From Planctomycetota bacterium (GTDB taxonomy: Bacteria; Planctomycetota; Planctomycetia; Pirellulales; Pirellulaceae), in contig JBCCFB010000002.1 of assembly GCA_039029995.1 (NCBI GenBank), forward strand, positions 14,318 to 78,317: a DNA stretch of 64,000 bases. The letters run 5' to 3'. The notes beneath the pieces are model-generated. The model was not told where the DNA came from and searched no databases. It saw only the letters and a list, made by a program, of their open reading frames with translations. The translations under genes were made by a program, and so were the position numbers. Shown piece by piece: positions 10,601 to 31,600 of the stretch (position 1 is the stretch's first letter; every line of letters starts with the position of its first letter).

Positions 10601-11300
10601 CTGGCAGTCCGATGTCATTGGCCAACTGTTCATCAGCGAAATTGAGCCCGTAGATGTCTTCGTTGATTGAACGGAGGACCAGCGAAGGATCAACGGTAAT
10701 CACCGGGCCTGGAAGAGTGCTGCCGCCATCTTCAGGTAGAAAATCTCCGATTTCGACTTCGTCAACGTAGTAGGTATTTTGAGCTGCACCGGTGAACTCC
10801 TGCAGGATTATCGATGAAACCGGCGACGGTACAGTAAACCTTTCAAAATCGACTACAACCTCCGTCCACTGTCCGGCCACCGGCGCAACATCATCTATTT
10901 CAATCCATGTTCCGCCTTGATCGGCGACGTAGAACTTCAGTTGTTGTCCGCCGGCGCCTCCGTGAATCTGAAACCTGATTTCCTCGTCGACAGCAATGTT
11001 CTCGCCGAGATAGTTTCCAAGGGTGAGTGCAGACCATGGATCGTCATGCGTGACCGCAATCGAGCTTGAACCGGAGTAAACCGTCCCCGCATGGTCAAGT
11101 TCCACGGTCGTTCCAAACGACCAGTTCTGCCACACGCCCTGCAAAGCATCGTTGTAGACTACCGACGCCATCAGACAGCGATCTTCCAGCCTTTTGAAAT
11201 CAAAGGACTGCACACTCGACTTACGACTAGCCGCGCCTTGTCTTCTTCGCCGCGTTTTTTCGCGCGAACTTGATGAGTTGCCAGTTCGTTTCGTCTTCAT
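7596..11300 (-). CDS. Secreted glycoside hydrolase family 44 protein with N-terminal planctomycete extracellular motif, CBM-like domain and C-terminal beta-helix
   Basis: RLEDRCLMA; EDIYGLN, RWGGNSTTRFNW, YALDNEPMLWNSTHRDVHP, DYLDIHYYP, LAITEYNWG, GIFGREGV (GH44 core); VVTNLLDSGAGSLRSAI followed by parallel beta-helix repeats. Confidence 0.88.
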   Translation of the reverse strand: MKTKRTGNSSSSREKTRRRRQGAASRKSSVQSFDFKRLEDRCLMASVVYNDALQGVWQNWSFGTTVELDHAGTVYSGSSSIAVTHDDPWSALTLGNYLGENIAVDEEIRFQIHGGAGGQQLKFYVADQGGTWIEIDDVAPVAGQWTEVVVDFERFTVPSPVSSIILQEFTGAAQNTYYVDEVEIGDFLPEDGGSTLPGPVITVDPSLVLRSINEDIYGLNFADEQLANDIGLPVDRWGGNSTTRFNWEIDAVNLASDWYFENYPNETPDVSTLPNGSTSDLFVEKDRRVGADTIFTVNTLGWAAKSRDIQGGFSVAKYGAQQDVDPYRPDNGNGVLLDGTLITGNDPLDTSISVDESFVQGWVNHLIGNFGSADDGGVRYYALDNEPMLWNSTHRDVHPDPASYDEVRDKGVSYASAIKAVDPDAQVLGPTVWGWTAYFYSALDAAAGGAWWENPQDRNAHGGQAFLPWYLSEMADAEAASGTRLLDYLDIHYYPQQPGVALQPAGDSATQQTRLESTRSLWDPTYVDTSWINEEVNLIPRMRAWIDTHYPGTKLAITEYNWGANEHINGAVTQADILGIFGREGVDLATMWDPPDADDPTGYAFRMFRNYDGLGLAGSRFGDNSVMAESADQGQVSVYGSTRTSDGKLTLVLVNKSTDGRQTPLDIDLPGDFNAEVYTYSSSDLSSIVRASDLQFVDGEATIELDAYSITLLEIPVDVPTVVTNLLDSGAGSLRSAILSANQTPGVQTITFDISGSGPQTIQLASALPPVTDQIVIDATTQAGYSGIPVVSIDGSAITSNLANGLVFEADGSELRGLAITGFSGNGVDIQNADNVVIRDNFIGILSDGSASGNQRSGVRIQQSTGVDVSGNTISANGQHGVLISGGQTTGNIISGNRIGTDPAGNADRGNSLNGIHLAFRTDDNEIVDNVIGFNRSGIRNINGGQGNLVSVNSMFNNAGIGIDWGLFGRDRNDTGDFDEGPNRIQNSPVVFSALLSGNLLTVDYRVDSDPSAASYPLTIEFFIDDGAGEGRVFIGTHQFTPLDFAAGMASTTLDVSAINVVAGVDFVVATATDASNNTSEYGPRSGIGVSFEGRPWTGQAGTGQRGVPVSRRAFFQSDANSVIGQTIRDQRAVTPVAGVIEFESPVDPGRQFLTGGGAVKADLDAVFELDFETDFLTAPAAGRSGTVLSERKGIDGSTSGISNVSPKTRGDRVIQKCGQRFSALCILRMSKYS

Positions 11301-11407
11301 CCTCTGTCCTCCACGCGAATATCACCTGATTACGGCCGTCTTCGCAGGTTTCCCACGAACACGGACCGGCGTCTGTAGTGATTCGCGAAATTCAGACCGC
11401 GGAAGCG

Positions 11408-11424
11408 TCACGAATTTCGAAAAA
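11408..11424 (-). promoter_or_regulatory. Candidate ECF-dependent promoter element upstream of GH44 gene
   Basis: Minus strand TTTTTCGAAATTCGTGA followed 20 nt later by CGC; nearly identical to the motif at 28536-28554. Confidence 0.45.
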
Positions 11425-11500
11425 TTTCTGACGTAATTGCGATGATTCGACGCCCCGACTTGCGGGGATATAATCGGAACGGAACTGAGAAGGACACGGC

Positions 11501-12100
11501 ATGACAACCGACTACCCCTCACAATCTCATTCCCGCCAACCGCGATCTAGCGAAATGCAAGCACCTGCGACGTCGACGGATGGCCGGGACAATTGGCCGG
11601 ACCTTTATAACCGGCTTCGGGAGATTGCGTCGCGACAAATGAATCGGGAGAAGAAGGGACACCTTCTGCAAACGACAGCAGTTGTTCACGAAGCATGGCT
11701 TCGCCTGTCTCAAAACCGGAGTTCACCGGCATCCGATCGGGAGAGTTTTGTCAGCGCGGCCGCGGTCGTGATGCGCAGAGTCCTGGTTGACTTTGCTCGA
11801 AGTGAGAACGCAGCAAAACGGGGTGGGGGCCGCCAGAGAACAGCCCTCGCCAACTCGCACATCGCGGTCGGAAATCAGGGCTACCATGCCGTCGAGATCA
11901 ATGACGCTCTCGAACAGCTCGCAGCGTTCGCGCCTGAGCAGGCCAGGGCGCTGGAGTTGATGATTTTCGGCGGAATGACCGGTGAAGAAGTCGCCAGCAC
12001 AATGGACATCTCGGCATCAACCATCGACAGGAGAGTCCGCGCTGCGAAAGCGTGGCTAAGACGTGAACTAAGCGACCCCATCAACGGCGGCGGCGAATGA
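11501..12100 (+). CDS. ECF sigma factor, TIGR02999 type (kinase-associated)
   Basis: LYNRLREIASRQM...HLLQTTAVVHEAWLRL, VMRRVLVDFAR...AAKRGGG, IFGGMTGEEVA...RAAKAWL; ATGA overlap with the kinase. Confidence 0.93.
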   Translation: MTTDYPSQSHSRQPRSSEMQAPATSTDGRDNWPDLYNRLREIASRQMNREKKGHLLQTTAVVHEAWLRLSQNRSSPASDRESFVSAAAVVMRRVLVDFARSENAAKRGGGRQRTALANSHIAVGNQGYHAVEINDALEQLAAFAPEQARALELMIFGGMTGEEVASTMDISASTIDRRVRAAKAWLRRELSDPINGGGE

Positions 12101-15100
12101 AGAAGCAGACCACGTCGGAAGACTGGCAGAAAATTGACGCGATTTTCCAGCAAGTTGTTGATCTCCCTGCGGCGGAACAGGCTGAAACGATCTCTCGACT
12201 CGCTGCCGGGAACGAGCGACTATCTGACGAAGTAAAGTCGCTACTGGAATTCGACGAAACTGAATCGAGTGACCAGATTGCTGCGCTCCGTTCATCCGGA
12301 TCGGCCTCTGGCAACAATCCTCCCGGAAATCCCTCGGTAAAAGCTGGTGATCTGATCGGAGAGTTCCGCCTGCTTTTCCCTGTCTCCATCAGTTCCGCAT
12401 CGGAAGTCTGGTGCGCCGAAGCTGTAGATAGTTCCGCGATACCGAATCAGCATGTAGCAATCAAATTGCTTAGAACGAAGGTGGAAGCAGGTTCCAAAGA
12501 CCGTCATGTATTGCGATTTGTCAATGAAGCTCGATTGATGAGTCGATTCCGTCATCCCTCGATTGCCTCGTTCATTCAGGCGGGGCAAACCGAATCCGGA
12601 TTCCCGTACATTGTAATGAACTACGTCGATGGCAAATCGATTACGCGCTATTCGGATGACCAGCGACTGACGATCGCAGAGCGAATCGAGTTGGTCATCC
12701 AGGTTTGTCAGGCGGTTGCCTATGCCCATCGTTTTCTCGTCGTTCATCGTGATTTAAAACCGGAAAACATACTGGTTACCGCTGACGGAAATCCGGTCGT
12801 ACTCGATTTCGGCATCTCCAAGCAACTCGATTCGAACAGCCAGTTCAACAACGAAAACCGTTCATTGATCGTCACATCAGCTGATGAGCGACCGATGACG
12901 CCGGCCTATGCCAGTCCGGAACAACTTCAGGGCGACGAGATCACGACATCAACCGATGTGCACGCGCTTGGGCTGATCCTTTATGAACTGCTTTGCGGGC
13001 ACCATCCCTTCAGTTCAGCTTGCCACAATGGCGAAGCCACTTTTTTCGATCGCGCTGCCAGGCTTGTTCCAATCCCGCCTTCGGAAGCCGTCTCGTTTGC
13101 TGCCCAACCGCTTGAAGACGCCGGTCAACCAGCCAATGACGCGCAGATGATTGCGGCGCTCAGGAGAGCTTCAACCAGCCAGCTCAAACGACAATTGAAG
13201 CCCGGTCCGGACGCTGTCGTTCTGAAAGCGATTGCCAGAAATCCCGACCAGCGATACGGCTCAGTTGACGAGCTGCGGAACGACCTGGTCCGCGCGCTCG
13301 AGGGAAGACCGGTCAAAGCAGCGCGACAATCAGCATCAGTTGCACAAATGATCCGCAAGCGGCCGCTGGTTGCCATTGTATCGGCGTCTATTGCTACCGC
13401 TGCAATGGTGCTGGTCGGTGCCTTTCTATTCTGGTCCGGAAGAATTGCCGGTCTGAAGCAGCGGGCCGATCAGGCAATCGACCGCATGGATGAACGTAAT
13501 TCCGCGCTTGAGCAAGTCACCCAGGAACTGGAGGAATCCCGCGCCCGGTTCGCAGACTTTGAAAGCGTTGTTGCAACTGCGCTCGGGCAGAACGTTGAAG
13601 ATCTTTCGAGCGGCAGGTTGACGATCTCTGCACCCATGAAAGCCGCGCTTGCGCGGCAGGCAGCAAGAGAAGGTCGCTGGCCCGCGGCACGGGAATTGAT
13701 TGCTCAACTGGACGAAGCAACCGGCATGACCAGCTCTGCAGAAGACCTCGACATCAACTCGAGACTTGCGCTGGCCGAAGCTCTGCAGATACTCGGCCGT
13801 CCCGGACAGGCAATGCGTCTTCTGGATGACGTTCCTGTTTCTGAAGACCCGGTGGAATGGTTCAAACAGAACTGTGATGACCCTGTTGCGGCTGAGACGC
13901 TTCTGGTGCGCCTTCTTCTCGATACCAACCGCTTGTCCCAGGCTAACGATGTATGTGTTCGCAGCACCCTGATTGATGACGTCGCCGGTCACGAATCAGC
14001 AATCGACCTGCTTCTAGCCGCCGCCGAAGCGCGCTTTAAAATCGCCTGGCAGGACGGAGCTATAACAGTAGTCGATCATCTGAATCCGCAGGAAACGGGC
14101 CGGCTTACTGACGCGCAACAACTCCGGCTCAATTGCATCAAAGCGCGGATCGATGGGCGATCATTAATTCCGGTACTCAAAAAAATCCCGGATGCTCCGG
14201 CTACGGCGACCGCAGTTGTTGCAATTGAGTATCTTCATGAACAAGCCTCCCGGGCAATTGAAGATAATCAGATTGAGGCGGCCCGTGAATGTGTGAACCT
14301 TTCGAAAACGTGGCTTGAGATGCTGCCGATCGAAGATCACTATCTCCATGCTGCCAACGAACATCGGAAAATCATGCTGCTCGAAGCCACGGGAGATGAA
14401 GATTCGGCCGACCGGCTACGTGAACAGTTGTGGCAAACGGTCAAACAAACTCAGGCCTTCGGCACCGAGGAAGGTATCTGGACCGGCATCACACTTATGA
14501 TCCGTAACGAAGATTCAAGGCTCCGTTCGGAAATTCTATCCGCACTGGCTGACTTTCGACCAGCTATCGTCGCGGACCCGTATCGTGAGCGATGGATTGA
14601 ACGCTTCGACTATGAAACGGCTGCTGAGCGGGAGGAATGGGCAAGCGCAGTGATGCATGTTCAACAACTGATGGAACTTGAATCCAGGCTTTGGGGCCGC
14701 GTCTCATTTCCGGCTGCTTATGCCCGTGCTGCCCTTGCCCATGCCCTGGTAAAAGTAGGACGCAGGACTGAGGCTGGAGTCGTCTACGCTGAGACGAAAG
14801 CCGTCGTTGAAGAACTCGCCGAAGACAATCCGAGTGTCCCGTCTGTTGCCTATCTCAACACCGCAATTGCGATTTCGGAGTCGGAACACAGCCATCCGGT
14901 CCATCCGTGGATACAACGATTTACCATGCACTCATCGAATCCTGAAACGGATCAGCTGGAGATGCTTCGCTATTACGTGATTGAAAGCGAAATCGCGGCC
15001 GGGATCCGGCGCTTGCTATTTGTTGAATCGCTTGCCTACGTTGATCTGATCAGAACTGAAGCAACCACCGCAAATGAAGGCTCAATGATTCAGGATGAAT

Positions 15101-15381
15101 ATGCAATCCGGCTTTGCCGCGTGGCCAACGAACTCGGCGAATTCAGCAGGGCTTCGACTTTTCTTCTGCTTCGCAAATCCGATTCGAACCCCGATGTCGC
15201 CGATCGAGCTGCAGCCTGCCTGATCCAACTGCATGTAGATCGTGACGAAGTTGACGAGGGCCACGAGATTGCGAGAGAGTTTGCGCTCGGGCCGCATACT
15301 CGTGAGGTCATTTCGGAAACGATTGATCGACTCGGTGATCGCCCGGAGGAGCGGGGCCGCTGGCAGGAACTGCTGAATTAA
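12097..15381 (+). CDS. Membrane-anchored Ser/Thr protein kinase with C-terminal helical/TPR-like region
   Basis: VAIK, HRDLKPENIL, DFG, MTPAYASPEQ; TM segment PLVAIVSASIATAAMVLVGAFLFW; glycine-rich loop is degenerate. Confidence 0.92.
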   Translation: MKKQTTSEDWQKIDAIFQQVVDLPAAEQAETISRLAAGNERLSDEVKSLLEFDETESSDQIAALRSSGSASGNNPPGNPSVKAGDLIGEFRLLFPVSISSASEVWCAEAVDSSAIPNQHVAIKLLRTKVEAGSKDRHVLRFVNEARLMSRFRHPSIASFIQAGQTESGFPYIVMNYVDGKSITRYSDDQRLTIAERIELVIQVCQAVAYAHRFLVVHRDLKPENILVTADGNPVVLDFGISKQLDSNSQFNNENRSLIVTSADERPMTPAYASPEQLQGDEITTSTDVHALGLILYELLCGHHPFSSACHNGEATFFDRAARLVPIPPSEAVSFAAQPLEDAGQPANDAQMIAALRRASTSQLKRQLKPGPDAVVLKAIARNPDQRYGSVDELRNDLVRALEGRPVKAARQSASVAQMIRKRPLVAIVSASIATAAMVLVGAFLFWSGRIAGLKQRADQAIDRMDERNSALEQVTQELEESRARFADFESVVATALGQNVEDLSSGRLTISAPMKAALARQAAREGRWPAARELIAQLDEATGMTSSAEDLDINSRLALAEALQILGRPGQAMRLLDDVPVSEDPVEWFKQNCDDPVAAETLLVRLLLDTNRLSQANDVCVRSTLIDDVAGHESAIDLLLAAAEARFKIAWQDGAITVVDHLNPQETGRLTDAQQLRLNCIKARIDGRSLIPVLKKIPDAPATATAVVAIEYLHEQASRAIEDNQIEAARECVNLSKTWLEMLPIEDHYLHAANEHRKIMLLEATGDEDSADRLREQLWQTVKQTQAFGTEEGIWTGITLMIRNEDSRLRSEILSALADFRPAIVADPYRERWIERFDYETAAEREEWASAVMHVQQLMELESRLWGRVSFPAAYARAALAHALVKVGRRTEAGVVYAETKAVVEELAEDNPSVPSVAYLNTAIAISESEHSHPVHPWIQRFTMHSSNPETDQLEMLRYYVIESEIAAGIRRLLFVESLAYVDLIRTEATTANEGSMIQDEYAIRLCRVANELGEFSRASTFLLLRKSDSNPDVADRAAACLIQLHVDRDEVDEGHEIAREFALGPHTREVISETIDRLGDRPEERGRWQELLN

Positions 15382-15390
15382 CTTCCTGCC

Positions 15391-16245
15391 CTAGCCGCCG
15401 AATCCGCTGTATCTTTTCACGCCGCGCCACCACAGAACGCGTGATAGAACGATAAAGAAAATCACCCAGAAAAGTTCTACTGCAAGCCCCTGATACATTT
15501 CCGGGCCGCTTACCTTGCCGAGAAACACTGCGGCAGGAAAGTATGCCAGAAACTTGAACGGTAGAAATCCGACTGCTGACTCGACTCCATCAGGCAGCAG
15601 TTCAAGTGGAAACATGTGCCCCGAAAGGAAAAAGTTCAGCAGCATATAGATAAACGCCAGTGACGTGACTTCCAGAAACCAGAAGGAAATCAAACCGATG
15701 CAGGCCTCGAGAAAATACCCGAGCAGGAAACTCAGAACCAGCGAGAGGTAGAAGACAATCTGGACATCAGCGGGTGGCCATCCATCACGGAAAAACCCGC
15801 CACACAGATAGAACACCAGTGCGAATGGAATCGTGGCGACGAAATAGTAGACCAGCTTGTGCGCAATTCGCTGCATCAACAGACATCCAAGCATGTCCAC
15901 CGGTTGGATCAGGAACTTTTTGACTTCGCCCTCACGAACCTGATTGGCGATTCCTGTCGTCAGCCCGGGCATGCTCGAAAAAGCGCGACTGATGATTACC
16001 AGAAGATTATACGCCACCATATCGCCGAACCGGTAACCTGCGATTTCACCGTCCGGCCCGCCCGTCGAATCAGCCGATCCGTTTGACGACATAACGTCAT
16101 AGATCGCCCACCATAGAAATATCTGGGTCAACGTCGGCAGAAAGCGCAACAGCGTACCCAGCATAAAATCGCCGCGGTAAACCAGTCGCTCATTGACTGA
16201 AACGCGGAAAAACATCCACCATGTGAATATGCTTGTCTCAAGCAC
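15391..16245 (-). CDS. ABC-2 family transporter permease
   Basis: LVYRGDF, GYRFGDMVAYNLL, GEVKKFLIQPVD, FLSGHMFPLELLP, YFPAAVFLG, RYSGFGG end. Confidence 0.92.
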   Translation of the reverse strand: MLETSIFTWWMFFRVSVNERLVYRGDFMLGTLLRFLPTLTQIFLWWAIYDVMSSNGSADSTGGPDGEIAGYRFGDMVAYNLLVIISRAFSSMPGLTTGIANQVREGEVKKFLIQPVDMLGCLLMQRIAHKLVYYFVATIPFALVFYLCGGFFRDGWPPADVQIVFYLSLVLSFLLGYFLEACIGLISFWFLEVTSLAFIYMLLNFFLSGHMFPLELLPDGVESAVGFLPFKFLAYFPAAVFLGKVSGPEMYQGLAVELFWVIFFIVLSRVLWWRGVKRYSGFGG

Positions 16246-17236
16246 TGTTGCTCATCTCCTGAGCGCTGGTAAATGCTTCGGCGATCACTTCCTCAAGTGG
16301 AGGATCTTCTACGGCAACATCGCTAACTCGATAGTTGGTCAGAATCCGGCTGAGCGTTACTCCGACTTCGTCGCGGTTGACATGAAATTTGAGACGAGGT
16401 GGATCAATGCTGACCACCTGACTGAGTGAAGCGGCAACTTCTTTGATTTCATTTTCGTCCGGCATTTGTAACGTCACAATCTTGTCGCTGCCGAAACGGT
16501 CCACGATGTCATCGAGTGAACCATCGTGGTAGATCGCCCCGTTTGCGATGATGACGACACGCTTGCAAAGCGCGGCAATATCTTTCATGTAATGACTGGT
16601 CAGCAGAATCGTATTCCTGCGCTGCTGCTGGTACTCTCGCAGAAACTCCTGGATGCGGTGCTGGGCAATCACGTCGAGTCCGATCGTCGGTTCATCCAGA
16701 AACAGAACATCAGGCGAATGCAGCAGAGCCGCGATCAGTTCCATCTTCATCCGCTCGCCGAGCGAAAGTTCACGCACCGGCTGTTTCAGCAGGTGAGCGC
16801 AGTCCAGCATCTCAGCAAGCTCGTCGCGGGTGCGATTGAACTCGACAGGATCAATCCGGTAGATGTGCTGATGCAACCGGAACGACTCCAGTGCGGGAAG
16901 ATCCCACCACAACTGATTCTTCTGCCCCATCACCAGTGCGAATCGTCGCCGGTATTCGTTCCTGCGCTCCCAGGGCGTAAAACCCATCACGCTGCATGAG
17001 CCTGAATCGGGATTGATGACCCCTGACAACAGTTTCAAGGTTGTCGTTTTTCCAGCACCGTTGGGCCCCAGAAAGGCAACGAATTCGCCTTCTTCGACCT
17101 GCAAGTCAATTCCGCGGACCGCTTCGACGGTCCTGTACTCGCGCTTGAACAAACCCGTAATGGATGCGGTTACGCCTTCGCGCTTCTGGTAAACGCGATA
17201 GGTTTTGACAAGATTCTCGATCTCAATAATGGCCAT
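16238..17236 (-). CDS. ABC transporter ATP-binding protein
   Basis: Walker A GPNGAGKTT, LSLGERMK signature, Walker B VLFLDEPT, LTSH; start taken at ATG 17236 (MAIIEIENL). Confidence 0.95.
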   Translation of the reverse strand: MAIIEIENLVKTYRVYQKREGVTASITGLFKREYRTVEAVRGIDLQVEEGEFVAFLGPNGAGKTTTLKLLSGVINPDSGSCSVMGFTPWERRNEYRRRFALVMGQKNQLWWDLPALESFRLHQHIYRIDPVEFNRTRDELAEMLDCAHLLKQPVRELSLGERMKMELIAALLHSPDVLFLDEPTIGLDVIAQHRIQEFLREYQQQRRNTILLTSHYMKDIAALCKRVVIIANGAIYHDGSLDDIVDRFGSDKIVTLQMPDENEIKEVAASLSQVVSIDPPRLKFHVNRDEVGVTLSRILTNYRVSDVAVEDPPLEEVIAEAFTSAQEMSNSA

Positions 17237-17458
17237 GCGGCGATTATAGGACTGCTGATTCAAATCAAACAGGTGCGGCACAAACGGACAGCATCCCTCA
17301 CCGAATCCCGCTTGATCGTATGGGATTCATCACAGGAGCTTCATCGGGGCTTCGCGGGCGGTAAGGACAGGGCGACGTGGACCACGGATGTGTCGGCGCC
17401 TCAATCCTGTTGTGCGCCACCGCTGCGCGACGTTAGGATTTCAGCATCACAATTGAGC

Positions 17459-17959
17459 ATGGATAAGACTGTGAATCCTGACACACGAATCGGAATCGGG
17501 CACGACACGCATCGGCTCAAGGATGGCGGACCGTTGCGATTGGGCGGAATCGACATCCCCTTTGAGCGCTCGCTTGACGGTCATAGCGATGCAGATGTTC
17601 TACTTCACGCGGTTACTGACGCGATTCTCGGCGCCGCGGCTCTTGGCGACATCGGCGAGTTGTTTCCTGATACAGACGCGGAAAACATAGGTCGCGACTC
17701 CGCCGACATGCTTCAAATCGCGGCGGCAACGGTCCGCGAATCCGGATTCGAGATCGGCAATCTCGACTGTATTGTCTTTGCTGAGAAGCCCAAGCTGTCG
17801 CCCCACAAACGTCCGATTGCCCGGCGTATCGCGGAAATCCTCGGCATTTCGGCCGATCAAGTCGGCGTAAAAGCCAAAACGGGCGAAGGCGTCGGACAAG
17901 TCGGCAACGGAGAGGTGATGTTGGCTCAATGCATCGCGCTGCTATATCGTACCGCCTGA
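17459..17959 (+). CDS. ispF: 2-C-methyl-D-erythritol 2,4-cyclodiphosphate synthase
   Basis: RIGIGHDTH, GHSDADVLLHAVTDAILGAAALGDIGELFPD, VGVKAKTGEG; start moved to ATG 17459. Confidence 0.95.
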   Translation: MDKTVNPDTRIGIGHDTHRLKDGGPLRLGGIDIPFERSLDGHSDADVLLHAVTDAILGAAALGDIGELFPDTDAENIGRDSADMLQIAAATVRESGFEIGNLDCIVFAEKPKLSPHKRPIARRIAEILGISADQVGVKAKTGEGVGQVGNGEVMLAQCIALLYRTA

Positions 17960-18101
17960 GGAGATCGTACCGCCTGCCGGACTGACAGCTGTCCGCTTCA
18001 ACCGCGAGGACAGCCGTCGATTCGTTTCCGACCGATGCTTACCAAGCCTCCCCTTCTGTTAATCAGCCCGGTTCATAAATCCCGCACTCCGGTATTCATT
18101 C

Positions 18102-18614
18102 ATGAGCTCTTCGGAAAAAACCCGCGTCCTTGGAATCGACCCCGGATTGAACATTACCGGCTACGGAGTCGTTGACTTCGAAAACAATATTCCAACGGTA
18201 GTGGAGGCAGGCGTCGTACGCAGCAAACGGAAAAACGAACTCCCCGTCCGCCTCACCGCATTGCATGAAGGAATTGTTGATGTCCTTCAGTCTCTCAAGC
18301 CTGACATCGTTGCGATGGAACAGCTGTACAGCCATTACGAGCGTCCGCAAACTGCAATCATCATGGGCCATGCGCGCGGAGTGATCTGTCTGGCAGTTGG
18401 ACAAAGCGGGATTCCACTTGTCAGCTACGCTGCTACTCAGATCAAAAAAGTTCTGACCGGTAATGGTCGTGCTCCCAAGAGTCAGGTACAACTCGCCGTC
18501 GAAAGACAATTGCAACTGGATTCGACGCCCGAGCCGCCTGACGTCGCCGATGCACTTGCGGTCGCGGTGTGCCACTGTTTCCTTGCCGAAAACAACTTGA
18601 CGAGACTCACGTGA
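18102..18614 (+). CDS. ruvC: Holliday junction resolvase RuvC
   Basis: VLGIDPGLNITGYGVV, AMEQLY, GHARGV, IKKVLTGNGRAPKSQV, DVADALAVA. Confidence 0.96.
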   Translation: MSSSEKTRVLGIDPGLNITGYGVVDFENNIPTVVEAGVVRSKRKNELPVRLTALHEGIVDVLQSLKPDIVAMEQLYSHYERPQTAIIMGHARGVICLAVGQSGIPLVSYAATQIKKVLTGNGRAPKSQVQLAVERQLQLDSTPEPPDVADALAVAVCHCFLAENNLTRLT

Positions 18615-19243: not shown

Positions 19244-19453
19244 CTGCGTTGTTTTTTTGGCTTCGACCGGCTCTCTTTCTGGCATCCTGCTCTCTATCTG
19301 GAATACCGTGCCTGCTGGAATACCATGCCTGGACCCGGCTGCTCCTCTGCAAATAAAAACCCCGCGTCATGCAGCGCGGGTACTGCAAGCGCGGGGTCGA
19401 TAGCGATCGGGATTTGTCAGGAGCCGTGCGGGTACCGGCTCTGAAATCCGTGT

Positions 19454-21061: not shown

Positions 21062-21949
21062 TCAGCCTTGCTGCCCCTCCAACCCGATCGCATTGCGAAT
21101 TCCGGCCTCAAGATCACTCCAAAGGGGTTCAAACTGCAAAAGAGACTTCATCCTCTCGTTGCGAATTCTTTTTCCCTTACCTGCGCTTCGAGCGGAGCTT
21201 TGTGATTCCTGTTGACCGGCCGACAAGGACGCTGGCCATTCGATCGGACCAAGATCATACAAATTTGCAAGGATCTGATAGTAGTCGCGCCGTAGAGGAG
21301 CATTTCCATCACTAACCAGAATCGTTTCGCCCATTACCCCGAGCGCGGCCGTATTCAGAATTGCCGTAACGGCGTCATCACGATGGATCAGGTTGATATG
21401 TCCGTCCGGATTCAAGCTGGAAACGTTCCGGCTTCTGATTTTCTCTGCCGAGGGGACACGGCCCGGACCGTAGATTCCAGCAAGACGCAGGATCGTCGCA
21501 TGTCGAGCAAAACGGCTTTTTGTGAGAAGCCGCTCAGCTTCGAGACAGGCGATCCCGCCCTCACGTACTGGTTCGGCCGTTGAAGTCTCGGTGATTTCTT
21601 CACCGCCGGTCTGTCCGTAAACACCCGTCGAACTCACGTAGATGATCTGGCCAGTCCCATCAGGAAGCCAACTCAGAATATTGGCTAATCCGTTTACGTA
21701 GACGCTTCGAATACTGTCATAGCGAGAGCGGTCCATTCCAACTGCGATGAGTACGGTATCGACGACAGGAACCTTCCCCGGGGGCTCTTCGTCCGTGATA
21801 TCGGTAACAATGGGCAGGAAACCCATGTCCTGAAACACACGAGCGCGATCTGGAGATCTAGTCGTAACGTAGACAATATCACCTTGCTCCAACCAGGCTT
21901 GCGCAACTTCCTGCCCTAAATATCCGCACCCTATTACCAGACGTCGCAT
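21062..21949 (-). CDS. NAD-dependent epimerase/dehydratase (atypical SDR, YeeZ-like)
   Basis: VIGCGYLG, YVSSTGVYG, LRLAGIYGPGR, NLIHRDD. Confidence 0.9.
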   Translation of the reverse strand: MRRLVIGCGYLGQEVAQAWLEQGDIVYVTTRSPDRARVFQDMGFLPIVTDITDEEPPGKVPVVDTVLIAVGMDRSRYDSIRSVYVNGLANILSWLPDGTGQIIYVSSTGVYGQTGGEEITETSTAEPVREGGIACLEAERLLTKSRFARHATILRLAGIYGPGRVPSAEKIRSRNVSSLNPDGHINLIHRDDAVTAILNTAALGVMGETILVSDGNAPLRRDYYQILANLYDLGPIEWPASLSAGQQESQSSARSAGKGKRIRNERMKSLLQFEPLWSDLEAGIRNAIGLEGQQG

Positions 21950-23334: not shown

Positions 23335-23389
23335 TTCCACTTCCGTCCGAACTTCTGATCCCGAAATCCAGACCCGAAACAACACTGAC

Positions 23390-24799
23390 ATGAAAACAAC
23401 TCAAATCAATTTTGAACGACTTTGCGTACTGGTGGCATTCTGCATTGCCTTCTGCCTGCCGGTAGCTGTGCTTTCTCAGGAATCCGCATTCGCTTCGCCT
23501 GTGTCTTCATGGCAGGAAGAAGACGACACAATCGATCTGGAAGAAGATGAGGATGACGACCGCCGGCGTAGTGTTGTCGATCGTTACTCGAAAGAAGCAC
23601 CGGAGTTTGCTGAACTAGTCCGCCCAGTCGTCGGCTCCGTAACCGATTCGACCGTGGCAATCATGGATGGCCGCAAACGGGTAGCTCTCGGGACGATCGT
23701 CGATTCAAACGGTTTCATCCTGACCAAGGCCAGCGAGATGTCCGGCTCAATCGAGTGCAGACTCTCAAATGGTGACTCGTTCAACGCGACGGTATACGGT
23801 GTAGATCCTGAAACTGATCTGGCCCTCTTGAAGATTGATGCTGACGGTCTGCCTGCGATTCAGTGGAGCGAATCACAGCCGCCGGTCACGGGTCAGTGGC
23901 TCGTTTCTCCCAACAATGAAGGCGAACCGGTCGGTATCGGGGTCGTCAGCGTTGACGCCCGGTTGATCCCGCCAACCCGCGCATTCCTGGGAATCCGGCC
24001 TGTTCCAACGGACGGTGACAAAGGCGTGCTGATTACAGAAGTCATCGATGGAACACCGGCTGATCGAGCTGGCCTGGAACCCGAAGACATCATTATCAAA
24101 ATCGACGAGGTCGAAATTCCCAACCCTGAGAAGCTCCGCGAGACACTTGCTCAGTTTGACCCGAACGACCTTATCAAGTTGACGATTCTGCGTGACGAGG
24201 AGGAGAAGGAAATGTCTCTCAGCCTTGCCAACGAAGTTGACGTCAACCCGGACTTTGATCGCAGCAATACTCAGAATTCGATGGGAAGCCGTTTGAGCCA
24301 GCGACGCCGCGATTTCCCGATGGCGGTACAACACGACTCGCAACTCCAGGCCAACCAGTGTGGCGGTCCTATCGTTGATCTTTCGGGTCAGGTAGTCGGA
24401 CTCAACATTGCCAGAGGTGGTCGCGTGTTCAGCCTTTTCCTGCCGGTAGACATTATTGAGCCGGTCGTAGATCGCTTGAAGACCGGTGAGTACTCCCCGA
24501 CCGTTGTTAACGCTGATCAAATCACACGTGTTGAAGATGAATTGAAGGAAATCGGGCGACTGGTGCGAACTCTGCCGGACGACCGAAACCGTCTTGAAGA
24601 CAAGATGGAGGGTGACGAGGCCCGCGAAGATGAGATCAAAGCCCTGATCGCATCTCTGCAGGAACGGCTTGAGGAACTCGAAGAGGAACGCAAGTCAGAC
24701 CGCGCCGAACTAAGCGCTCTCGGTCGTCGGATTCGCACAGCGGAGAAAGACGAAGAGCGCTTGAGAGAGAACCTCGAACGCCTTCAAAACGGTTCCTGA
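23390..24799 (+). CDS. HtrA-like protein with PDZ inserted into a degenerate protease domain and a C-terminal coiled coil
   Basis: LTKASE (no His), DLALLK, then PDZ (AFLGI...TPADRAGLEPED), then NQCGGP...VVGLNIAR; heptad-rich C-terminus. Confidence 0.88.
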   Translation: MKTTQINFERLCVLVAFCIAFCLPVAVLSQESAFASPVSSWQEEDDTIDLEEDEDDDRRRSVVDRYSKEAPEFAELVRPVVGSVTDSTVAIMDGRKRVALGTIVDSNGFILTKASEMSGSIECRLSNGDSFNATVYGVDPETDLALLKIDADGLPAIQWSESQPPVTGQWLVSPNNEGEPVGIGVVSVDARLIPPTRAFLGIRPVPTDGDKGVLITEVIDGTPADRAGLEPEDIIIKIDEVEIPNPEKLRETLAQFDPNDLIKLTILRDEEEKEMSLSLANEVDVNPDFDRSNTQNSMGSRLSQRRRDFPMAVQHDSQLQANQCGGPIVDLSGQVVGLNIARGGRVFSLFLPVDIIEPVVDRLKTGEYSPTVVNADQITRVEDELKEIGRLVRTLPDDRNRLEDKMEGDEAREDEIKALIASLQERLEELEEERKSDRAELSALGRRIRTAEKDEERLRENLERLQNGS

Positions 24800-24822
24800 A
24801 TCACTCAGACCAGATCAGAATT

Positions 24823-24860
24823 AAATCGCCGGTCAGTCGCTATTGACCGGCGATTTTTTT
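24823..24860. terminator. Rho-independent terminator between convergent genes
   Basis: AAATCGCCGGTCA-gtcgctat-TGACCGGCGATTT followed by T-run; overlaps the end of the convergent kinase gene. Confidence 0.85.
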
Positions 24861-27800
24861 CGTACAGGCCCGAGACGAACATCGTCAATTCGAGGGCGAG
24901 TGAATCCGCTGAACCGTCCCGACAGCATCTCCCACCGCTCCAGCGCAGCCGGCTCTGCAGCCGCCAGAAACGAGTTAACGGCCTCAGCAACTTGCGCTGC
25001 AGACAGCTCGTCTTGCCGTTCTTCGACGATGTCTATCATCCGGCAGATTGCAAACAACTGGTGGCGGCAGGACATTCCTGACAAAGGCGGCTCAAACAAT
25101 CCGTCCGACGCAACCTGAAGTGCGTCAATCAACTGGTGCTCGGCTGCCGGTGAATCCACGAACCTGAGCAGTTCGACCAACGGCAGGTACGCCGATTCCG
25201 GTACTTGAAAATCGCCGGTAATCTCATTCGCGTCCGTCACTTTCAAAAGACGGACTTGCGCTGCCGCGTCATCATGGCGACCCGTTTCTGCATAACAAAC
25301 GGCAAGTATCAACATGTCAGCAGGAGTCACTTTCTGCTCCAGTTCGTCGAACCTGTCGAACTGAGCGATTGCTTTGTCAAAGTCCTGCAATGAGAAGTAG
25401 GCACGGCTGAGTTGGAAATTGATCCCTTTCCGCAAATTCCGGACATGGTCCGATTCGTAGCCTTCGGGGATTCTGTCAATGAGTTCGAGTGCGGAATGCA
25501 GTCTTCGGATTTCCGATTCAGAATTGTCGCGTCTACGATCACGGTCGGCCGCAGAAAGAAATAATCTCACCTGAAGCAGCATCTCGTCCGGCCGGCTCCG
25601 GCCGCTGGCAATCTGTTCGCTTAGCTGACGCGCCTGCTCAGCTGCGACAGTCGCTTCTTCCGGATCTGTACTCCAGCGCGCAAGCAACTCGTACAGGGAA
25701 ACCAGTTGCAAAGTGAAATCCTCGACGTCGGGATTCTCAATCGTCAGCCGGGTCTGCAATACAACGGCGAGCTCCAGGTCGCTGATCGCGTCTTCGGTCC
25801 GCCCCGCTTCAGCCTTCAGCTCACACACCTCCAGCAGACACTCAACACGTTTCTGAACGTACCGCGGCAGCGTCGGGATGCAACGGATGCAAACCTGCTC
25901 AATCGTCCCGAGCGCGTTTTCCGAAGCTTCTTGAGCACTAACTACATTGCCGGTTGCACGGTGGAAGCGCGCAAGGTGAAGCCAGCTGTTGGCATGCGTC
26001 AACTGGAAGTCATGAATGTTCGAAAGCACTGAGGATAATTCGAGCGCCGTTTCAAACGACTCCATTGCATCATCACGTTTGCTCTGATGCATCTGGACTT
26101 CGCCCAGCCGCTGCCATGCAGTGGCAAGAAACCAGGCACGGTATTCTGCATTGCCACCTTCGTCATCGATTCTCTCAAGACTGTTGATTGCCCGAACGCA
26201 AGATTCCGCAGCGGCGTCAAAGCGGTTCGATTCGATCAACGTGCGTGCCATGGAAATGCATGTACTGCCCAGCTTGATGTCGATTTTCTCGGTATCGTCT
26301 GCAGCAGCGCGCACGTTCTCAAGCATTGAGACGGCGCGGCCGAATACCTCGACCGAACCACCCAGGTCCCGCGCGATCAAAAGAACTTTTCCGTACTCCA
26401 TCGTCAGATTGATCTGTTCCAGGCGGATTTCGTGACGACTGCTGATTCCCGCGACCTGCTCAGCATCGCGAACCGGCCTGCTCAGCAGCTCGTCGTAGAA
26501 CTCAAGTCCGTTTTCGATCAGGTCCTGCTGGAAGAGCAGATCGCGAGATGAGCCCAGCGGCGTATGAGTCTGAACAGCGTCAAGGTACTGGCGAATTGCT
26601 TTGTGAGCCTGGACAAAATTGTCATTGGCAATATTCCGTTCCGATTCGAGTTGTCTTGCGGTTTCACGAATGGCATCGCGTTGATCCCTGAGCTCAAGGG
26701 TCAACGATGCCCACAGCGCAACGAAAGCCAGTACAGCAAAGCAGGAAACGGCCGCGAGTCCCGCTGCAGCCGGCGATCGCCGGGCCCACATCAGAGTTCG
26801 ATCAATCAGGCCTGCTTTTCTTGCACGAACGGGGCGGCCATCGAGGAAACTCACCAGGTCATCTTTGAGCTGTTCGACAGACGCGTAGCGCTTGTCGGGG
26901 TCTTTGCGTAGACAACACAGGCAGATCGTCTCCAGATCAGGTCCGATTGCCCGGTTAAGTCTGGTGGGAGCAACCGGATCACGATTCAGAATTCGTTCCA
27001 ATGTTCCGGCAAGCGTGTCAGCTTTAAGCGGTGGCTCGCCCGTAATCAGCTCATAAAGCACTGCTCCGAGTGCATAGACATCTGAACGCGTGTCTATGTT
27101 CTCAGCCCTTCCGACAGCCTGCTCGGGGCTCATGTATCGGGGCGTTCCGACGATCTGGCCGGTCAGCGTCTGAGTTTCAGAATGCTCCCCGGCAAGAAGC
27201 ATTTTCGCGATCCCGAAATCGATTACTTTCGCAACAGGCCGGCCTTCCAGTTCCGTTACCAGAATGTTGGAAGGTTTCAAATCGCGGTGAATGACTCCGC
27301 GGCGATGAGCGTGTTGCACCGCCTGGCAGACATCAATGAAGATGGCTGTTGTCTGCCGTAGATCGAGGCCGTTTGATTCACAGTATCGGGAGATGGAGAT
27401 TCCTTCGACAAACTCCATGACGAAGTACGGTCTACCTCTCGGGGTAATTCCTGCGTCATAGATTGTTGCGATATTCGGATGATTCATCAGAGCGAGCGTC
27501 TGACGTTCGAGGTCCATCCGGGCAATCACCTGCTCTGTTTCAAGGCCGGGCTTGATGATCTTGACAGCAACTTCTCTTTCGATCGGTGCACTCTGGCGGG
27601 CCCGATAGACGATTGCCATCCCGCCACGACCGATTTCCTCGATAAGTTCGCAATCACCGATCGTGTCACCGGGCTTCTCCACAACCAGCGGGGAGTTCAA
27701 AGTATCGATCCGGCCCGAACGCGGCGTCAGAAGATCGGATGCCGCTTCGCTCATAAACTCGCCACAGGACAAGTGGGATTCGACCAGCCGGGTGATGAGA

Positions 27801-27907
27801 TTGATCCTGCCGGTGTCCTGATCACACTCTTCGCGGATATACGCGTTGCGCTCGCCGGTATCGGAGATCTCAACAGCCCGTTCGAAAATCAGATCATCCT
27901 GCATCAT
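24833..27907 (-). CDS. Membrane-anchored Ser/Thr protein kinase with TPR-like C-terminus
   Basis: IGRGGMAIVY, VAVK, HRDLKPSN, DFG, GTPRYMSPEQ; TM AAGLAAVSCFAVLAFVALWASL; helical repeats. Confidence 0.94.
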   Translation of the reverse strand: MMQDDLIFERAVEISDTGERNAYIREECDQDTGRINLITRLVESHLSCGEFMSEAASDLLTPRSGRIDTLNSPLVVEKPGDTIGDCELIEEIGRGGMAIVYRARQSAPIEREVAVKIIKPGLETEQVIARMDLERQTLALMNHPNIATIYDAGITPRGRPYFVMEFVEGISISRYCESNGLDLRQTTAIFIDVCQAVQHAHRRGVIHRDLKPSNILVTELEGRPVAKVIDFGIAKMLLAGEHSETQTLTGQIVGTPRYMSPEQAVGRAENIDTRSDVYALGAVLYELITGEPPLKADTLAGTLERILNRDPVAPTRLNRAIGPDLETICLCCLRKDPDKRYASVEQLKDDLVSFLDGRPVRARKAGLIDRTLMWARRSPAAAGLAAVSCFAVLAFVALWASLTLELRDQRDAIRETARQLESERNIANDNFVQAHKAIRQYLDAVQTHTPLGSSRDLLFQQDLIENGLEFYDELLSRPVRDAEQVAGISSRHEIRLEQINLTMEYGKVLLIARDLGGSVEVFGRAVSMLENVRAAADDTEKIDIKLGSTCISMARTLIESNRFDAAAESCVRAINSLERIDDEGGNAEYRAWFLATAWQRLGEVQMHQSKRDDAMESFETALELSSVLSNIHDFQLTHANSWLHLARFHRATGNVVSAQEASENALGTIEQVCIRCIPTLPRYVQKRVECLLEVCELKAEAGRTEDAISDLELAVVLQTRLTIENPDVEDFTLQLVSLYELLARWSTDPEEATVAAEQARQLSEQIASGRSRPDEMLLQVRLFLSAADRDRRRDNSESEIRRLHSALELIDRIPEGYESDHVRNLRKGINFQLSRAYFSLQDFDKAIAQFDRFDELEQKVTPADMLILAVCYAETGRHDDAAAQVRLLKVTDANEITGDFQVPESAYLPLVELLRFVDSPAAEHQLIDALQVASDGLFEPPLSGMSCRHQLFAICRMIDIVEERQDELSAAQVAEAVNSFLAAAEPAALERWEMLSGRFSGFTRPRIDDVRLGPVRKKSPVNSD

Positions 27908-28470
27908 TCGTTTCGCATATGGTCGAACAGCCAGGCCCGTGCAAATGCCCAGTAGCGGTTGGCGGTCGGAACTGAAATCTGCAATGCCTCGGCGGCCTGA
28001 GCAATTGAGAGCCCGGCAAAGTATCTGTACTTCACGACTTCTGCTTTGTCGGGATAACGTTTCGCGAATTCGTCCAGAGCTTCGTTCACTTCGATGACTT
28101 CTGACAGAACCGGCTGGGGAATATTGTCTTCAAAAAAACCTTCGCGTTGTTTTCCGCTACCGCGCTTCAAGGTCTGCTTCTTCCTTGCATGGTCGACGAG
28201 GATCCTTCTCATCGCTTCTGCCGCTGCACCGAAGAAATGCGCGCGATTCTGCCAGTCGGGATTTGAGTTGCTGCCGAACAGGCGCAGAAAGGCTTCATTG
28301 ACCAGAGCGGTGGTCTGCAGTGTATGCCCTGCGCGATCGTCAGAAAACTGCCGGCCCGCAAGCGCATACAGTTCCCCGTAGACCGCCTCAAGTAATGAAG
28401 CCGATGCACCGTCCTCGCCGCGCCGGACCGAGTCGATCAGTTGTGTAATTTCTGGAGCGTGATTTCCCAT
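27904..28470 (-). CDS. ECF sigma factor, TIGR02999 type
   Basis: LLEAVYGELYALA...HTLQTTALVNEAFLRL, AAAEAMRRILVDHARKK...KRG, YFAGLS...WAFARAWL; start ATG 28470. Confidence 0.94.
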   Translation of the reverse strand: MGNHAPEITQLIDSVRRGEDGASASLLEAVYGELYALAGRQFSDDRAGHTLQTTALVNEAFLRLFGSNSNPDWQNRAHFFGAAAEAMRRILVDHARKKQTLKRGSGKQREGFFEDNIPQPVLSEVIEVNEALDEFAKRYPDKAEVVKYRYFAGLSIAQAAEALQISVPTANRYWAFARAWLFDHMRNE

Positions 28471-28535
28471 AAACTTCCGCGCCGAAGATGTCCGTCGAAA
28501 CACTCATTTTGCGCACGAAAGGTTCGCGGGCAAAC

Positions 28536-28554
28536 TTTTTTGAAAATTTCGTGA
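28536..28554 (+). promoter_or_regulatory. Candidate ECF-dependent promoter element upstream of PEP-CTERM gene
   Basis: TTTTTTGAAAATTTCGTGA followed 20 nt later by CGC(ATG); mirrors 11408-11424 (minus). Confidence 0.45.
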
Positions 28555-28615
28555 TACAAACTCAAGTCGTTTCACGCATGTCTCCCCTGCAGATTTTCAT
28601 CACGGGAGATACAAC

Positions 28616-31600
28616 GTGTCGTTTCGCAAAAACTCTTTCCCCACTGCGCGTGCGCGCTTTGTGGCCTGCTTCTCTTTTACACTTCTGGCAGTCCTTTTTG
28701 CCCTGCCGGTTGAAACCGATGCACAGGTCCGCACCTGGTCTTCTGCGACCAGCGGCGACTGGGATCTTGCTGGAAACTGGACCGGCGGCACTCCGGACAC
28801 GCCGACGGAATCAGCAGTCCTCGGCGGATCAACAACGTATACCGTCGCCTATCGAAATCTGTCCCTTACGATCGATTCATTGTCAATCGACAACTCGCTG
28901 GCGACACTGCTGATCGAAACTGACACCGGCAACACCAATTTGACGGTAGAAAACGACGTCACCAACAACGGCACCATCCGGATCGACAGCGACTCCGGCT
29001 TTGATCCCTCGTTGACTGTCAACAGCGGGACTTTGACCAACAACGGCACGGTCAGTTTCGGAGGGACATCAACCAGCGGGACCACGCTCCGCTCCCTGAG
29101 CGCGGACGTCGTGAACAACGGACTATTCAGAGTCGATCAGAATGCGCGACTGACTAGAAACAACGGTGTTTTCACCAATAACAGCCTGGTCGATATCGCC
29201 ACAGGAAAAACACTTGATTTCGGTGCTGCGACGGCAACGTTCAACATGAACGGAGGAACAGTCAAGAACTCAGGCGCGTTCAACTTTTCCGGTGACACAC
29301 TCAATTTCAATGCCGGCAACTTCACTGACAACGCGATCAGCCTCAATAATTCGACGCTGAACATCGGCACCGGTAGTACGGGCACAGGCGTGTTCAACAT
29401 GACCGGCCTGGGTAATTACAACGGAGACCTTGCGGCCGCCCAGACGATCAATATCACTCCCGGCTCAGGCAACACGACGATCACCGCCACGAGTGACTTC
29501 GATAACAATGGAACGATCAACCTCGACAGCGACAACGGTTTCGACGTACTGCTGACCCGCGATGGAAGCATCACCAACAACGCCACGATCAATTTCGGTG
29601 GCACATCGGATGACGGAGTTACGCTCCGCCGGCTCAGCGCCGATGTCACCAACAACGGAACGGTCAACGTTAATCAGAACGGGCGGCTTACACGGAACGG
29701 CGGGACATTCAACAATGACGGTACGGTAAACATCGCTACCGACCGGTTCCTCGATTTTGAATCGGCAACCGGAACATTCGTTCAGGACAGCGGCAGTGTG
29801 AACAATCTCGGCTCGTTCAACTTTCTGGGAGACACACTGAACTTCAATGGCGGCAATTTCAGCGGCAACGCCGTCAGCCTGAACAACTCGACGCTCAATA
29901 TCGGAGCAGGAAGTACGGGTACCGGTGAATTCAACATGACCGGCCTCGGCAACTACAGCGGGGATCTGGCTGCTGCCCAGACTTTGAATATCAACCCGGG
30001 CACGGGAAACACAACGATTACGGCAGCGGACGACTTCACCAACAACGGCACCATCAACCTCGACAGTGACAACGGGTTCGACGTTCTGCTGACGCGGGCA
30101 GGTTCTATTACCAATGACGCAACCGTAAATTTCGGCGGCACATCCGATGACGGATTCACCATTCGCCGGCTCAGCGCGGATGTCGTCAACAACGGAACTG
30201 TGAACGTCAATCAGAACGGACGATTGAGCCGGAACAGCGGCATCTTCACCAACAACAGTTCAGTCAACATCGCCAGTGGAAAGACGCTCGATTTCGACAC
30301 CGCTCTTGGAACTTTCAATCACGAAGCCGGCACCGTCGATAACCAGGGTTCGTTCAACTTTTCCGGAGACACACTCAACTTCAACGGTGGTGTCTTCTCT
30401 GGAAACGCGATCAGCATGAACAATTCGACTTTGAACATCGGCGCCGGCAGCACTGGTGCGGGCGTCTTTGATATGACCGGCCTGGGCAACTACAGCGGCG
30501 ATCTCGCGGTCTCGCAAACGGTGAACATTAATCCAGGCACAGGAAATACCGTCATCACTGCGGCAGCGGACTTCACAAATAATGGAACGTTCAACCTGGA
30601 TAGCGATAACGGATTCGACTCTTCGCTCACTCTGGCGGGGACCCTGACAAACGAAGGCCTGATGAACTTCGGTGGCACATCAGATTCCGGAGTAACCCTG
30701 CGGCAGCTCAGCGCCGATGTCATCAACAACGGGTCATTCAACATCAACCAGAACGCACGACTGACGCGGAATACCGGGGTCTTCACTAACAACAATGAAG
30801 TCAACATTGCCGCCGGCAGGACGCTGGATTTCGCTACTGCCACGGGTAAGTTCAACCAGGATGGCGGCAATGTGGACAACCAGGGAGCATTCAACTTTGC
30901 CGGTGACACACTCAACTTCAACGGCGGTGACTTCTCCGGAAACGCAATCAGCCTTTCGAATTCCACTTTGAATATCGGTGTCGGCAGTACAGGTACCGGG
31001 GAGTTCGACATGTCCGGCCTGGGCACCTACAGCGGCAATCTTGCTGCTGCCCAGACAGTGAACATCAATCCTGGCACAGGAAACACAGTCGTCACAGCAA
31101 CAGGCGATTTCACAAATTCGGGAACGATCAACCTCGACAGTGACAACGGTTTTGATGTGACCCTGGCCAGAGCCGGCCGGATCACCAACGACGGAACGAT
31201 CAACTACGGTGGAACGGGCACATCGGGCGTTACTTTCAGAAGGCTCTCTGCTGAGATCGACAACAACGGCCTGGTCGACTTTATTACTGAGAACACCAGT
31301 CACAAATTCGGCACCGCCGGAGCAGACCACATCAACAACGGCACTCTATTCAATCGCGAAGACGGTTCGATCGTTGAATTTCTCGGCAGTTCATTCACAA
31401 ACGATATCGGAGGATCTCTCAACGGAGTCGGCGAATATGATTTCACCCAAACCGGACTGGTCAGCAACGGAATCATCGATCCGGGCACAAGTCCCGGAAT
31501 CCTGCACCTGGACGGGACGATCAACCTGGGCACCACTTCCGAAATTGCCATCGAGATCGGCGGGCTGGCTCAGGGTTCAGAGTACGATCTGCTCAATGTC

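Follow-up and report, generated by a model that had tools for sequence, protein, structure and literature searches.

Two group ECF43 sigma factor/Hanks-kinase pairs of a Pirellulaceae bacterium, and the predicted promoters that couple them to divergent genes for secreted proteins

Sigma factors of the extracytoplasmic function (ECF) group ECF43 are recognized by their region 2.2, in which uncharged residues and a conserved threonine (consensus QTTA) stand in for the acidic DAED motif (PMC13147305, PMC8999054), and a Hanks-type kinase encoded beside them phosphorylates this threonine to provide the charge that is needed for binding to RNA polymerase (PMC13147305, PMC8999054, PMC8103513). The closest described pairs are EcfP/PknT of Vibrio parahaemolyticus and EcfK/PknS of Xanthomonas citri. 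In Planctomycetes and several soil phyla a single genome encodes a dozen or more ECF43 sigma/kinase pairs, with outputs that are almost entirely uncharted, and earlier prediction of ECF promoter motifs leaned on autoregulation (PMC7826278). Here we analyze a 64,000-nt stretch of contig JBCCFB010000002.1 (assembly GCA_039029995.1, Planctomycetota bacterium, Pirellulaceae; positions 14,318-78,317 of the forward strand), hereafter the window, in which two such sigma/kinase operons, ECF1-STK1 and ECF2-STK2, each lie back-to-back with a gene for a secreted protein. A cognate promoter is predicted on the opposite strand of each upstream gap, and its boxes are given for two sigma subfamilies; this ties ECF1-STK1 to a GH44 glycan hydrolase that is secreted, and ECF2-STK2 to a putative exosortase-sorted surface protein. 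We consider it probable, with good confidence, that both modules are ECF43 switches gated by phosphorylation, each acting through a single output promoter of its own in front of the divergent neighbour.

The back-to-back arrangement of a sigma/kinase pair and a secreted-protein gene, reported in a first-pass annotation of the window, is found twice, where that annotation had placed it (Table 1). In module 1, the GH44 gene on the minus strand diverges from ECF1 and STK1 on the plus strand; in module 2, STK2 and ECF2 on the minus strand diverge from a plus-strand gene for a 1095-aa repeat protein. The kinase genes overlap the sigma stop codons in both modules, the ECF1 and STK1 reading frames sharing 4 nt. 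Both sigma factors score over the curated TIGR02999 cut-off of 126.15 bits (ECF1, 163.2 bits; ECF2, 200.4 bits), and region 2.2 carries QTTA in place of the acidic DAED motif in ECF1 (GHLLQTTAVVHEAW; GHLLQTTAVV) as in ECF2 (GHTLQTTALV). Among orthologues, Q-T-T is invariant in one alignment (A3) and the second T in the other (A4). The catalytic motifs of both kinases are intact. STK1 consists of a kinase domain, one transmembrane helix (approximately residues 424-450) and a helical sensor domain of ~640 aa that belongs to no recognized family, and STK2 of a kinase domain, one transmembrane helix (approximately residues 380-398) and a TPR-rich sensor domain of ~620 aa. Because a single membrane helix is followed by some 600 aa of helical or TPR-like sequence, we read both as single-pass receptor kinases. 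With a Hanks-type Ser/Thr kinase beside each and no anti-sigma factor, ECF1 and ECF2 are assigned to group ECF43 (TIGR02999), and the two modules are further members of this known sigma/kinase kind. The literature bears out the coupling of TIGR02999 sigma factors to Ser/Thr kinases that the annotation had stated, and so does this genome (6.65 Mb in 466 contigs, 53.7% G+C), where a co-directional kinase gene lies immediately downstream of 8 of the 12 TIGR02999 sigma genes. The organism is an uncultured planctomycete of marine type, and its closest public relatives are labelled Pirellulaceae metagenome-assembled genomes (MAGs).

Closer relatives of the two sigma factors were sought in a protein collection and their contigs fetched; the resulting loci carry labels beginning with L. 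The ECF2 family comprises the window, L047, L048, L049, L051, L053, L054 and L056, with sigma factors that are 61-70% identical. TGATAC-N17-CGCATG is present in all eight of these eight loci, with an unconserved spacer of exactly 17 nt, and TGATAC and CGCATGT are invariant in alignment A2; by chance, an exact match to all 12 bases close to a gene would be expected with a probability of about 7e-5 per locus. In L047, L048, L049 and L051 the gene that diverges from the ECF2 orthologue, and that the element faces, encodes a homologue of the PEP-CTERM repeat protein; in L056 the element faces an unrelated HpiC1-like gene. At L053 (2839-2866) and L054 (3639-3666), where there is no divergent gene, TGATAC-N17-CGCATG stands between the sigma gene and the kinase gene and faces the kinase; if it acts as a promoter there, kinase expression would depend on the sigma factor, a positive feedback. 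The downstream gene varies (PEP-CTERM protein, HpiC1-like protein or kinase), and the element tracks the sigma subfamily and not the gene that it faces. None of 60 related genomes has an ECF2 orthologue, and in species representatives of the same genus the best match is 49% identical, the same as paralogues; the 60 genomes hold 20 pattern matches against 10 for a reversed-pattern control, which is near chance, and none lies beside an ECF homologue. Metagenome contigs scanned with ECF2 gave one irrelevant locus, at 26% identity.

The ECF1 family has an element of the same build. TGACGC-N17-CGCCA(A), or a near variant of it, occurs in 12 loci, the window having CGCGAA; variants of the upstream box are TGGTGC, TGAGGC and TGACAG, and TG..GC-N17-CGC.AA is invariant in the alignment (A1). 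Ten loci with an ECF1 orthologue have retained a divergent GH44 gene, and the element faces it in every one (10/10). Copies beyond those in A1 were found in L069, L070, L071, L073, L074 and L076, and the spacing is 17 nt in all listed sites of both families. Two short boxes at a fixed distance within 16-18 nt, an unconserved spacer, a direction toward a gene and co-inheritance with a sigma subfamily are among the features expected of an ECF-type promoter, and the conserved element displays these. The proposal that each pair drives its divergent secreted neighbour through such a promoter is thus upheld by an invariant bipartite element with a fixed, unconserved 17-nt spacer that faces the gene and is co-inherited with the sigma subfamily.

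The first-pass annotation had set out from a likeness between the two gaps of the window, TTTTTCGAAATTCGTGA (11424->11408, minus strand) and TTTTTTGAAAATTTCGTGA (28536-28554, plus strand). Both copies are where it located them, although their alignment needs two gap positions rather than one (17 nt vs 19 nt), and CGC does follow GTGA by exactly 20 nt in each (11387-11385 and 28575-28577). The strict joint pattern, which was written post hoc, matches only these two sites in the 6.65-Mb genome. As an unbiased test, the best local alignment of the two gaps was compared with those of 3000 random pairs of divergent intergenic regions from the same genome; the score of 23 (random mean, 17.6) was reached by 3.7% of random pairs. 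Because that share of random pairs aligns equally well, the likeness of the two gaps taken alone is weak evidence. The TTCG immediately before TGA is not kept in orthologues, and this part of the two-copy identity is coincidental. Both results are what one would expect if the shared sequence were a chance similarity of A/T-rich promoter DNA with no specific function, but we give that explanation almost no credence, since the TGAYRC-N17-CGC core is invariant at fixed spacing in 8 and 12 orthologous loci, the element is unique in the genome, and the loci are no recent near-identical copies (sigma factors 54-70% identical, spacers unconserved). In the window's genome TGATAC-N17-CGCATG has a single occurrence, and of four occurrences of TGACGC-N17-CGC[CG]AA only the GH44 copy is intergenic. 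Conservation across orthologous loci shows that the TGA-N20-CGC skeleton is non-random. Two more GAAA(A)TT(T)CGTGA words lie ~2.8 kb apart in DNA free of open reading frames (G000 contig C322, 3511 and 6356).

The comparison also redraws the boxes. The shared motif had been taken as a -35/-10 promoter; an ECF-type promoter core holds on comparative evidence, but the box boundaries do not. The predicted -35 is TGAYRC, the A/T-rich half of the motif sits upstream of it, and the motif covers only the first three -35 bases. Nor do the modules share one motif, for their cognate sequences differ (TGACGC/CGCCAA in the first family, TGATAC/CGCATG in the second). In 17 loci the 22 nt before the -35 are 50-86% A+T, against 46% for the genome, and runs resembling TTTTTGA(A/G)AAT recur; we read this stretch as a probable UP-like element between back-to-back promoters, not itself a -35. 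The ECF1-type element ends ~80 nt before the GH44 ATG and the ECF2-type element 33 nt before the GTG start of the PEP-CTERM gene, and transcription would start a few bases after the -10. A leader peptide beginning at the ATG inside CGCATGTC was considered and rejected, as the frames in orthologues range from 3 to ~39 codons and have different sequences. An Rfam scan of window positions 6000-33000 matched no RNA family.

Many ECF sigma factors autoregulate (PMC7826278), and the position of the element inside the sigma-kinase unit of L053 and L054 would suit an autoregulatory promoter of the sigma gene; alternatively, the element could be a housekeeping (sigma-70) promoter. We think this pair of explanations very unlikely. 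Wherever the upstream gene is divergent, in the window as in the orthologous loci, the element faces away from the sigma gene, and the sigma genes carry conserved TATAAT- or CAAAAT-type -10 boxes of their own: nine of the 12 orthologous ECF1 loci have a perfect TATAAT at a distance of 45-93 nt before the start of the ECF gene, and TTG...-16/18-CA(A/G)AAT is found in six orthologous ECF2 gaps (TAAAAT in L051). Read as sigma-70 hexamers, the element would offer xTGATA and ACGCAT, a poor -10, and a consensus scan finds no sigma-70-like promoter facing the GH44 or the PEP-CTERM gene, while one faces ECF1. The ECF43 operons here appear to be made constitutively, and the layout would fit a sigma factor that is always present and is gated after translation.

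Over the whole genome, intergenic DNA shows no enrichment of the loose skeleton at the 17-nt spacing, which is therefore not a general promoter type of this organism. Five of the 12 TIGR02999 loci have a divergent upstream gene, and beyond the two targets in the window these neighbours vary, encoding a PSD4/PA14 protein, a TolC-like protein and a PSCyt/PSD1 protein. Each pair looks like the owner of a one-promoter regulon. Across phyla, occurrences of TGA...-Nd-CGC were counted for d = 10-25 beside distant TIGR02999 genes, 54 of them relatives of ECF1 and 80 relatives of ECF2. In the orientation away from the sigma gene, occurrences in the first set are most frequent at d = 17, where there are 33 and the remaining spacings average 12.9; the second set has its maximum at the same spacing (28 vs 16.5), where the orientation toward the sigma gene has its minimum. 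Both sets together (134 genes, other phyla) give 61 observed against ~29 expected (combined Poisson p 2e-7). Sub-motifs with the 17-nt spacing could be discerned in Acidobacteriota/Bryobacterales (TGAGCTA...GCGCTAAGC; GCGCTA(A/G)GC form) and in Pyrinomonadaceae (TGAACACTTT...TCTCGCT), the loci concerned being L102, L105, L109, L110, L114, L116, L125 and L127, and L149, L158, L168 and L172. Because skeleton and sub-motifs recur beside TIGR02999 genes across phyla, GTGA-N20-CGC is probably a real family-wide skeleton, the remaining box letters being specific to subfamilies.

Three single sites touch on this question. Upstream of the ECF gene at 2501 in L167, a Pirellulaceae MAG, a TTTTTT tract is followed by TGACGC-N17-CGCATGTC, a hybrid of the ECF1-family -35 box and the ECF2-family -10 box. 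On G000 contig C10 (21365-21390, minus strand), an intergenic TGATAC-N17-CGC lies 37 nt before a 1363-aa gene on a contig with no TIGR02999 gene; it may be another ECF-type promoter or a chance match. On G000 contig C81, ~240 nt upstream of the ECF gene at 21471, TTTTTCGAAAAT TGAGTC-N17-CGTC reads toward the sigma gene; its A/T tract is near-identical to the motif first described in the window, with the opposite orientation and a -10 of the CGT type.

Several observations weigh against dedicated, sigma-specific promoters. The other 10 TIGR02999 loci of the genome do not have the exact pattern in the away orientation, and they show no excess of the exact or a relaxed pattern; enrichment beside other ECF-kinase pairs, which the first-pass annotation had expected, is thus absent for the exact pattern in this genome and present for the looser TGA-N20-CGC beside distant TIGR02999 genes. 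A search for bipartite words in a third subfamily, that of the ECF gene on contig C27, which is divergent from a TolC-like gene and whose putative orthologues lack synteny, gave nothing above noise. The peak in the second cross-phylum set is modest (z about 2.5), and the predicted ECF2 operon promoter falls under the threshold of the consensus scan and is less certain. CGC is unusual as a -10 core, where many ECF promoters have CGT. The downstream box is conserved over 7-8 nt (CGCATGTC), longer than a minimal -10, and the proposed link between sigma factor and promoter is drawn from their co-occurrence. These last two points, a long box and a tie that is by sequence and not physical, are also what would be expected if the element were the site of another DNA-binding regulator, or of an alternative sigma factor other than the adjacent one. 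We judge this unlikely. Across three kinds of downstream gene the element stays with the sigma subfamily, relatives without an orthologue show no element beside their ECF genes, and the loci have no further regulator gene in common; moreover, the element is non-palindromic and directional, with the 17-nt spacing typical of promoters of the sigma-70 family, and the same skeleton is found beside distant TIGR02999 genes.

We propose that the dedicated switches work as follows. The sigma-kinase operon would be transcribed from its own housekeeping-type promoter, and the sigma factor would be present yet inert, because uncharged QTTA replaces acidic DAED in region 2.2. The co-encoded single-pass Hanks kinase would sense an extracytoplasmic cue through its C-terminal domain of ~600 aa and phosphorylate the conserved threonine; that phosphorylation gates ECF1 and ECF2 is suggested by analogy with EcfP/PknT and EcfK/PknS. 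Once phosphorylated, the sigma factor would be able to engage core RNA polymerase and initiate at the cognate promoter back-to-back with its own gene, where a UP-like A/T tract precedes a -35 TGAYRC that is separated by exactly 17 nt from a -10 CGCnnnn. ECF1/STK1 would read TGACGC-N17-CGCGAAT and turn on the secreted GH44 glycoside hydrolase, and ECF2/STK2 would read TGATAC-N17-CGCATGTC and turn on the PEP-CTERM surface repeat protein. A wider reading is plausible but tentative: an A/T tract, TGAnnn, 17 nt and CGC, back-to-back with the sigma gene, may be a general ECF43 code in Planctomycetota, Acidobacteriota, Verrucomicrobiota and others, in which subfamily-specific letters insulate paralogues and sigma factor plus promoter form a cassette that can capture its own kinase, a hydrolase or a surface protein as output. 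Were this true, sequence would reveal what thousands of orphan sigma/kinase pairs control, and the pairs would be a natural set of orthogonal, phosphorylation-gated switches. For related pairs, the practical recipe for finding targets is to look for TGA-N20-CGC read away from the sigma gene. The switch is of an ordinary kind, with a promoter code that can now be read, and the result is useful more than surprising.

The GH44 protein matches PF12891 with 261 bits (gathering cut-off, 25.1); an identification as EpsB was rejected, the NF041873 equivalog model giving 393 bits against a cut-off of 1250. A gene for an ABC-2 family permease (PF06182; window 6766-7650, minus strand) overlaps the last 55 nt of the GH44 frame, and the final ~40 aa of the GH44 protein look odd; the GH44 gene may stop earlier, or may form one transcription unit with the permease gene. 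The repeat protein ends in IPEPATAGLIACTLGVLMIRRKRA. Against a cut-off of 16 for TIGR02595 (PEP_CTERM), the tail alone scores 20.6 bits and the full-length protein 15.7 bits, just below; two exosortase genes (PF09721) are present in the genome, and the protein has the marks of a PEP-CTERM/exosortase substrate. It is built of about four to five N/G/T/S-rich tandem repeats of ~190 aa and matches no Pfam family; a counterpart of its C-terminal ~190 aa is present in numerous proteins of related genomes. Homologues with 45-50% identity are encoded behind a co-directional Ser/Thr kinase gene in L041, L043 and L044 (genomes G023, G011 and G025). The stretches fetched for these three loci contain no ECF match at E<1e-10, which makes them unusable as footprints; they are another wiring of a kinase with the same sort of surface protein.

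The starts of ECF1 and ECF2 in the mechanical list of open reading frames look too far upstream. The public gene call for ECF1 (P0121) begins at 11555 and gives 181 aa. For ECF2, the ATG at 28470 (188 aa) is the likely start rather than the GTG at 28503, because the latter directly follows the predicted -10 of ECF2's own promoter; ECF2 orthologues are 185-190 aa long, which matches this choice.

Table 1. Genes and predicted promoter features of the two modules (window coordinates)
Feature	Position	Strand	Basis or description
GH44 gene, 1234 aa, secreted, C-terminal right-handed beta-helix region	7596..11300	-	PF12891 E=1.5e-77; PF13229 Beta_helix
Predicted ECF1-dependent GH44 promoter	11381..11410	-	-35 TGACGC (11410-11405), 17-nt spacer, -10 CGCGAAT (11387-11381)
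A/T-rich UP-like tract upstream of the GH44 -35 (TTTTTCGAAATTCG of the first-pass annotation)	11411..11432	-	Composition across loci
Putative sigma-70-type promoter of the ECF1-STK1 operon	11447..11474	+	TCGACG-16-TATAAT; 10/12 consensus matches
ECF1	11501..12100	+	Assigned to group ECF43 (TIGR02999), QTTA in region 2.2
STK1, Hanks-type receptor kinase	12097..15381	+	PF00069 E=1.7e-38; HRDLKPEN and DFG motifs; transmembrane segment
STK2, Hanks-type receptor kinase	24833..27907	-	PF00069 E=5.4e-46; TPR families; transmembrane segment
ECF2	27904..28470 (mechanical open reading frame to 28503)	-	Assigned to group ECF43 (TIGR02999), QTTA
Predicted sigma-70-like promoter of the ECF2-STK2 operon	28506..28534	-	TTTGCC (28534-28529), 17-nt spacer, CAAAAT (28511-28506)
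A/T-rich 17-bp tract between, and common to, two back-to-back -35 elements (TTTTTTGAAAATTTCG of the first-pass annotation)	28535..28551	.	Gap comparison
Predicted ECF2-dependent PEP-CTERM gene promoter	28552..28582	+	-35 TGATAC (28552-28557), 17-nt spacer, -10 CGCATGTC (28575-28582)
PEP-CTERM repeat protein, 1095 aa, secreted, ~190-aa repeats	28616..31903	+	Sequence; TIGR02595 on tail

Classical ECF promoters of the sigma-E/sigma-W type have an AAC-containing -35 and a CGT-containing -10, 16-17 nt apart. The promoters predicted here resemble them in being bipartite and directional, with a fixed spacing of ~17 nt, a -10 core containing G and C, and an unconserved spacer. They differ in their -35, which is TGAYRC and not GGAAC or TGAAAC, in a -10 core of CGC instead of CGT, and in driving a divergent gene without autoregulating the sigma operon. 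We found no published ECF43 promoter consensus in the literature searched, so one may have been described earlier.

The two modules are closest in kind to the described ECF43 systems. EcfP of V. parahaemolyticus (Iyer et al. 2020, as summarized in PMC8999054 and PMC8103513) is likewise a DAED-less sigma factor of the TIGR02999 type, with xTTA containing the phospho-acceptor threonine, and its gene likewise neighbours that of a Hanks-type membrane kinase, PknT, and lacks an anti-sigma partner. That system belongs to another phylum and its outputs are polymyxin-resistance genes, whereas those predicted in the window are a GH44 hydrolase and a PEP-CTERM surface protein; its phosphorylation, regulon and promoter were tested experimentally, whereas those of the window modules are predicted from sequence. 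EcfK/PknS of X. citri, also of group ECF43, likewise combines a sigma factor with a single-pass receptor kinase that has a large extracytoplasmic domain, and likewise controls a neighbouring envelope or secretion function (PMC13147305). EcfK, however, has QATE, which retains one acidic residue, and extra phospho-sites in its linker, whereas both window sigma factors have QTTA; and the target of EcfK is a type VI secretion cluster (PMC13147305), whereas the sigma factors of the window appear to drive single genes.

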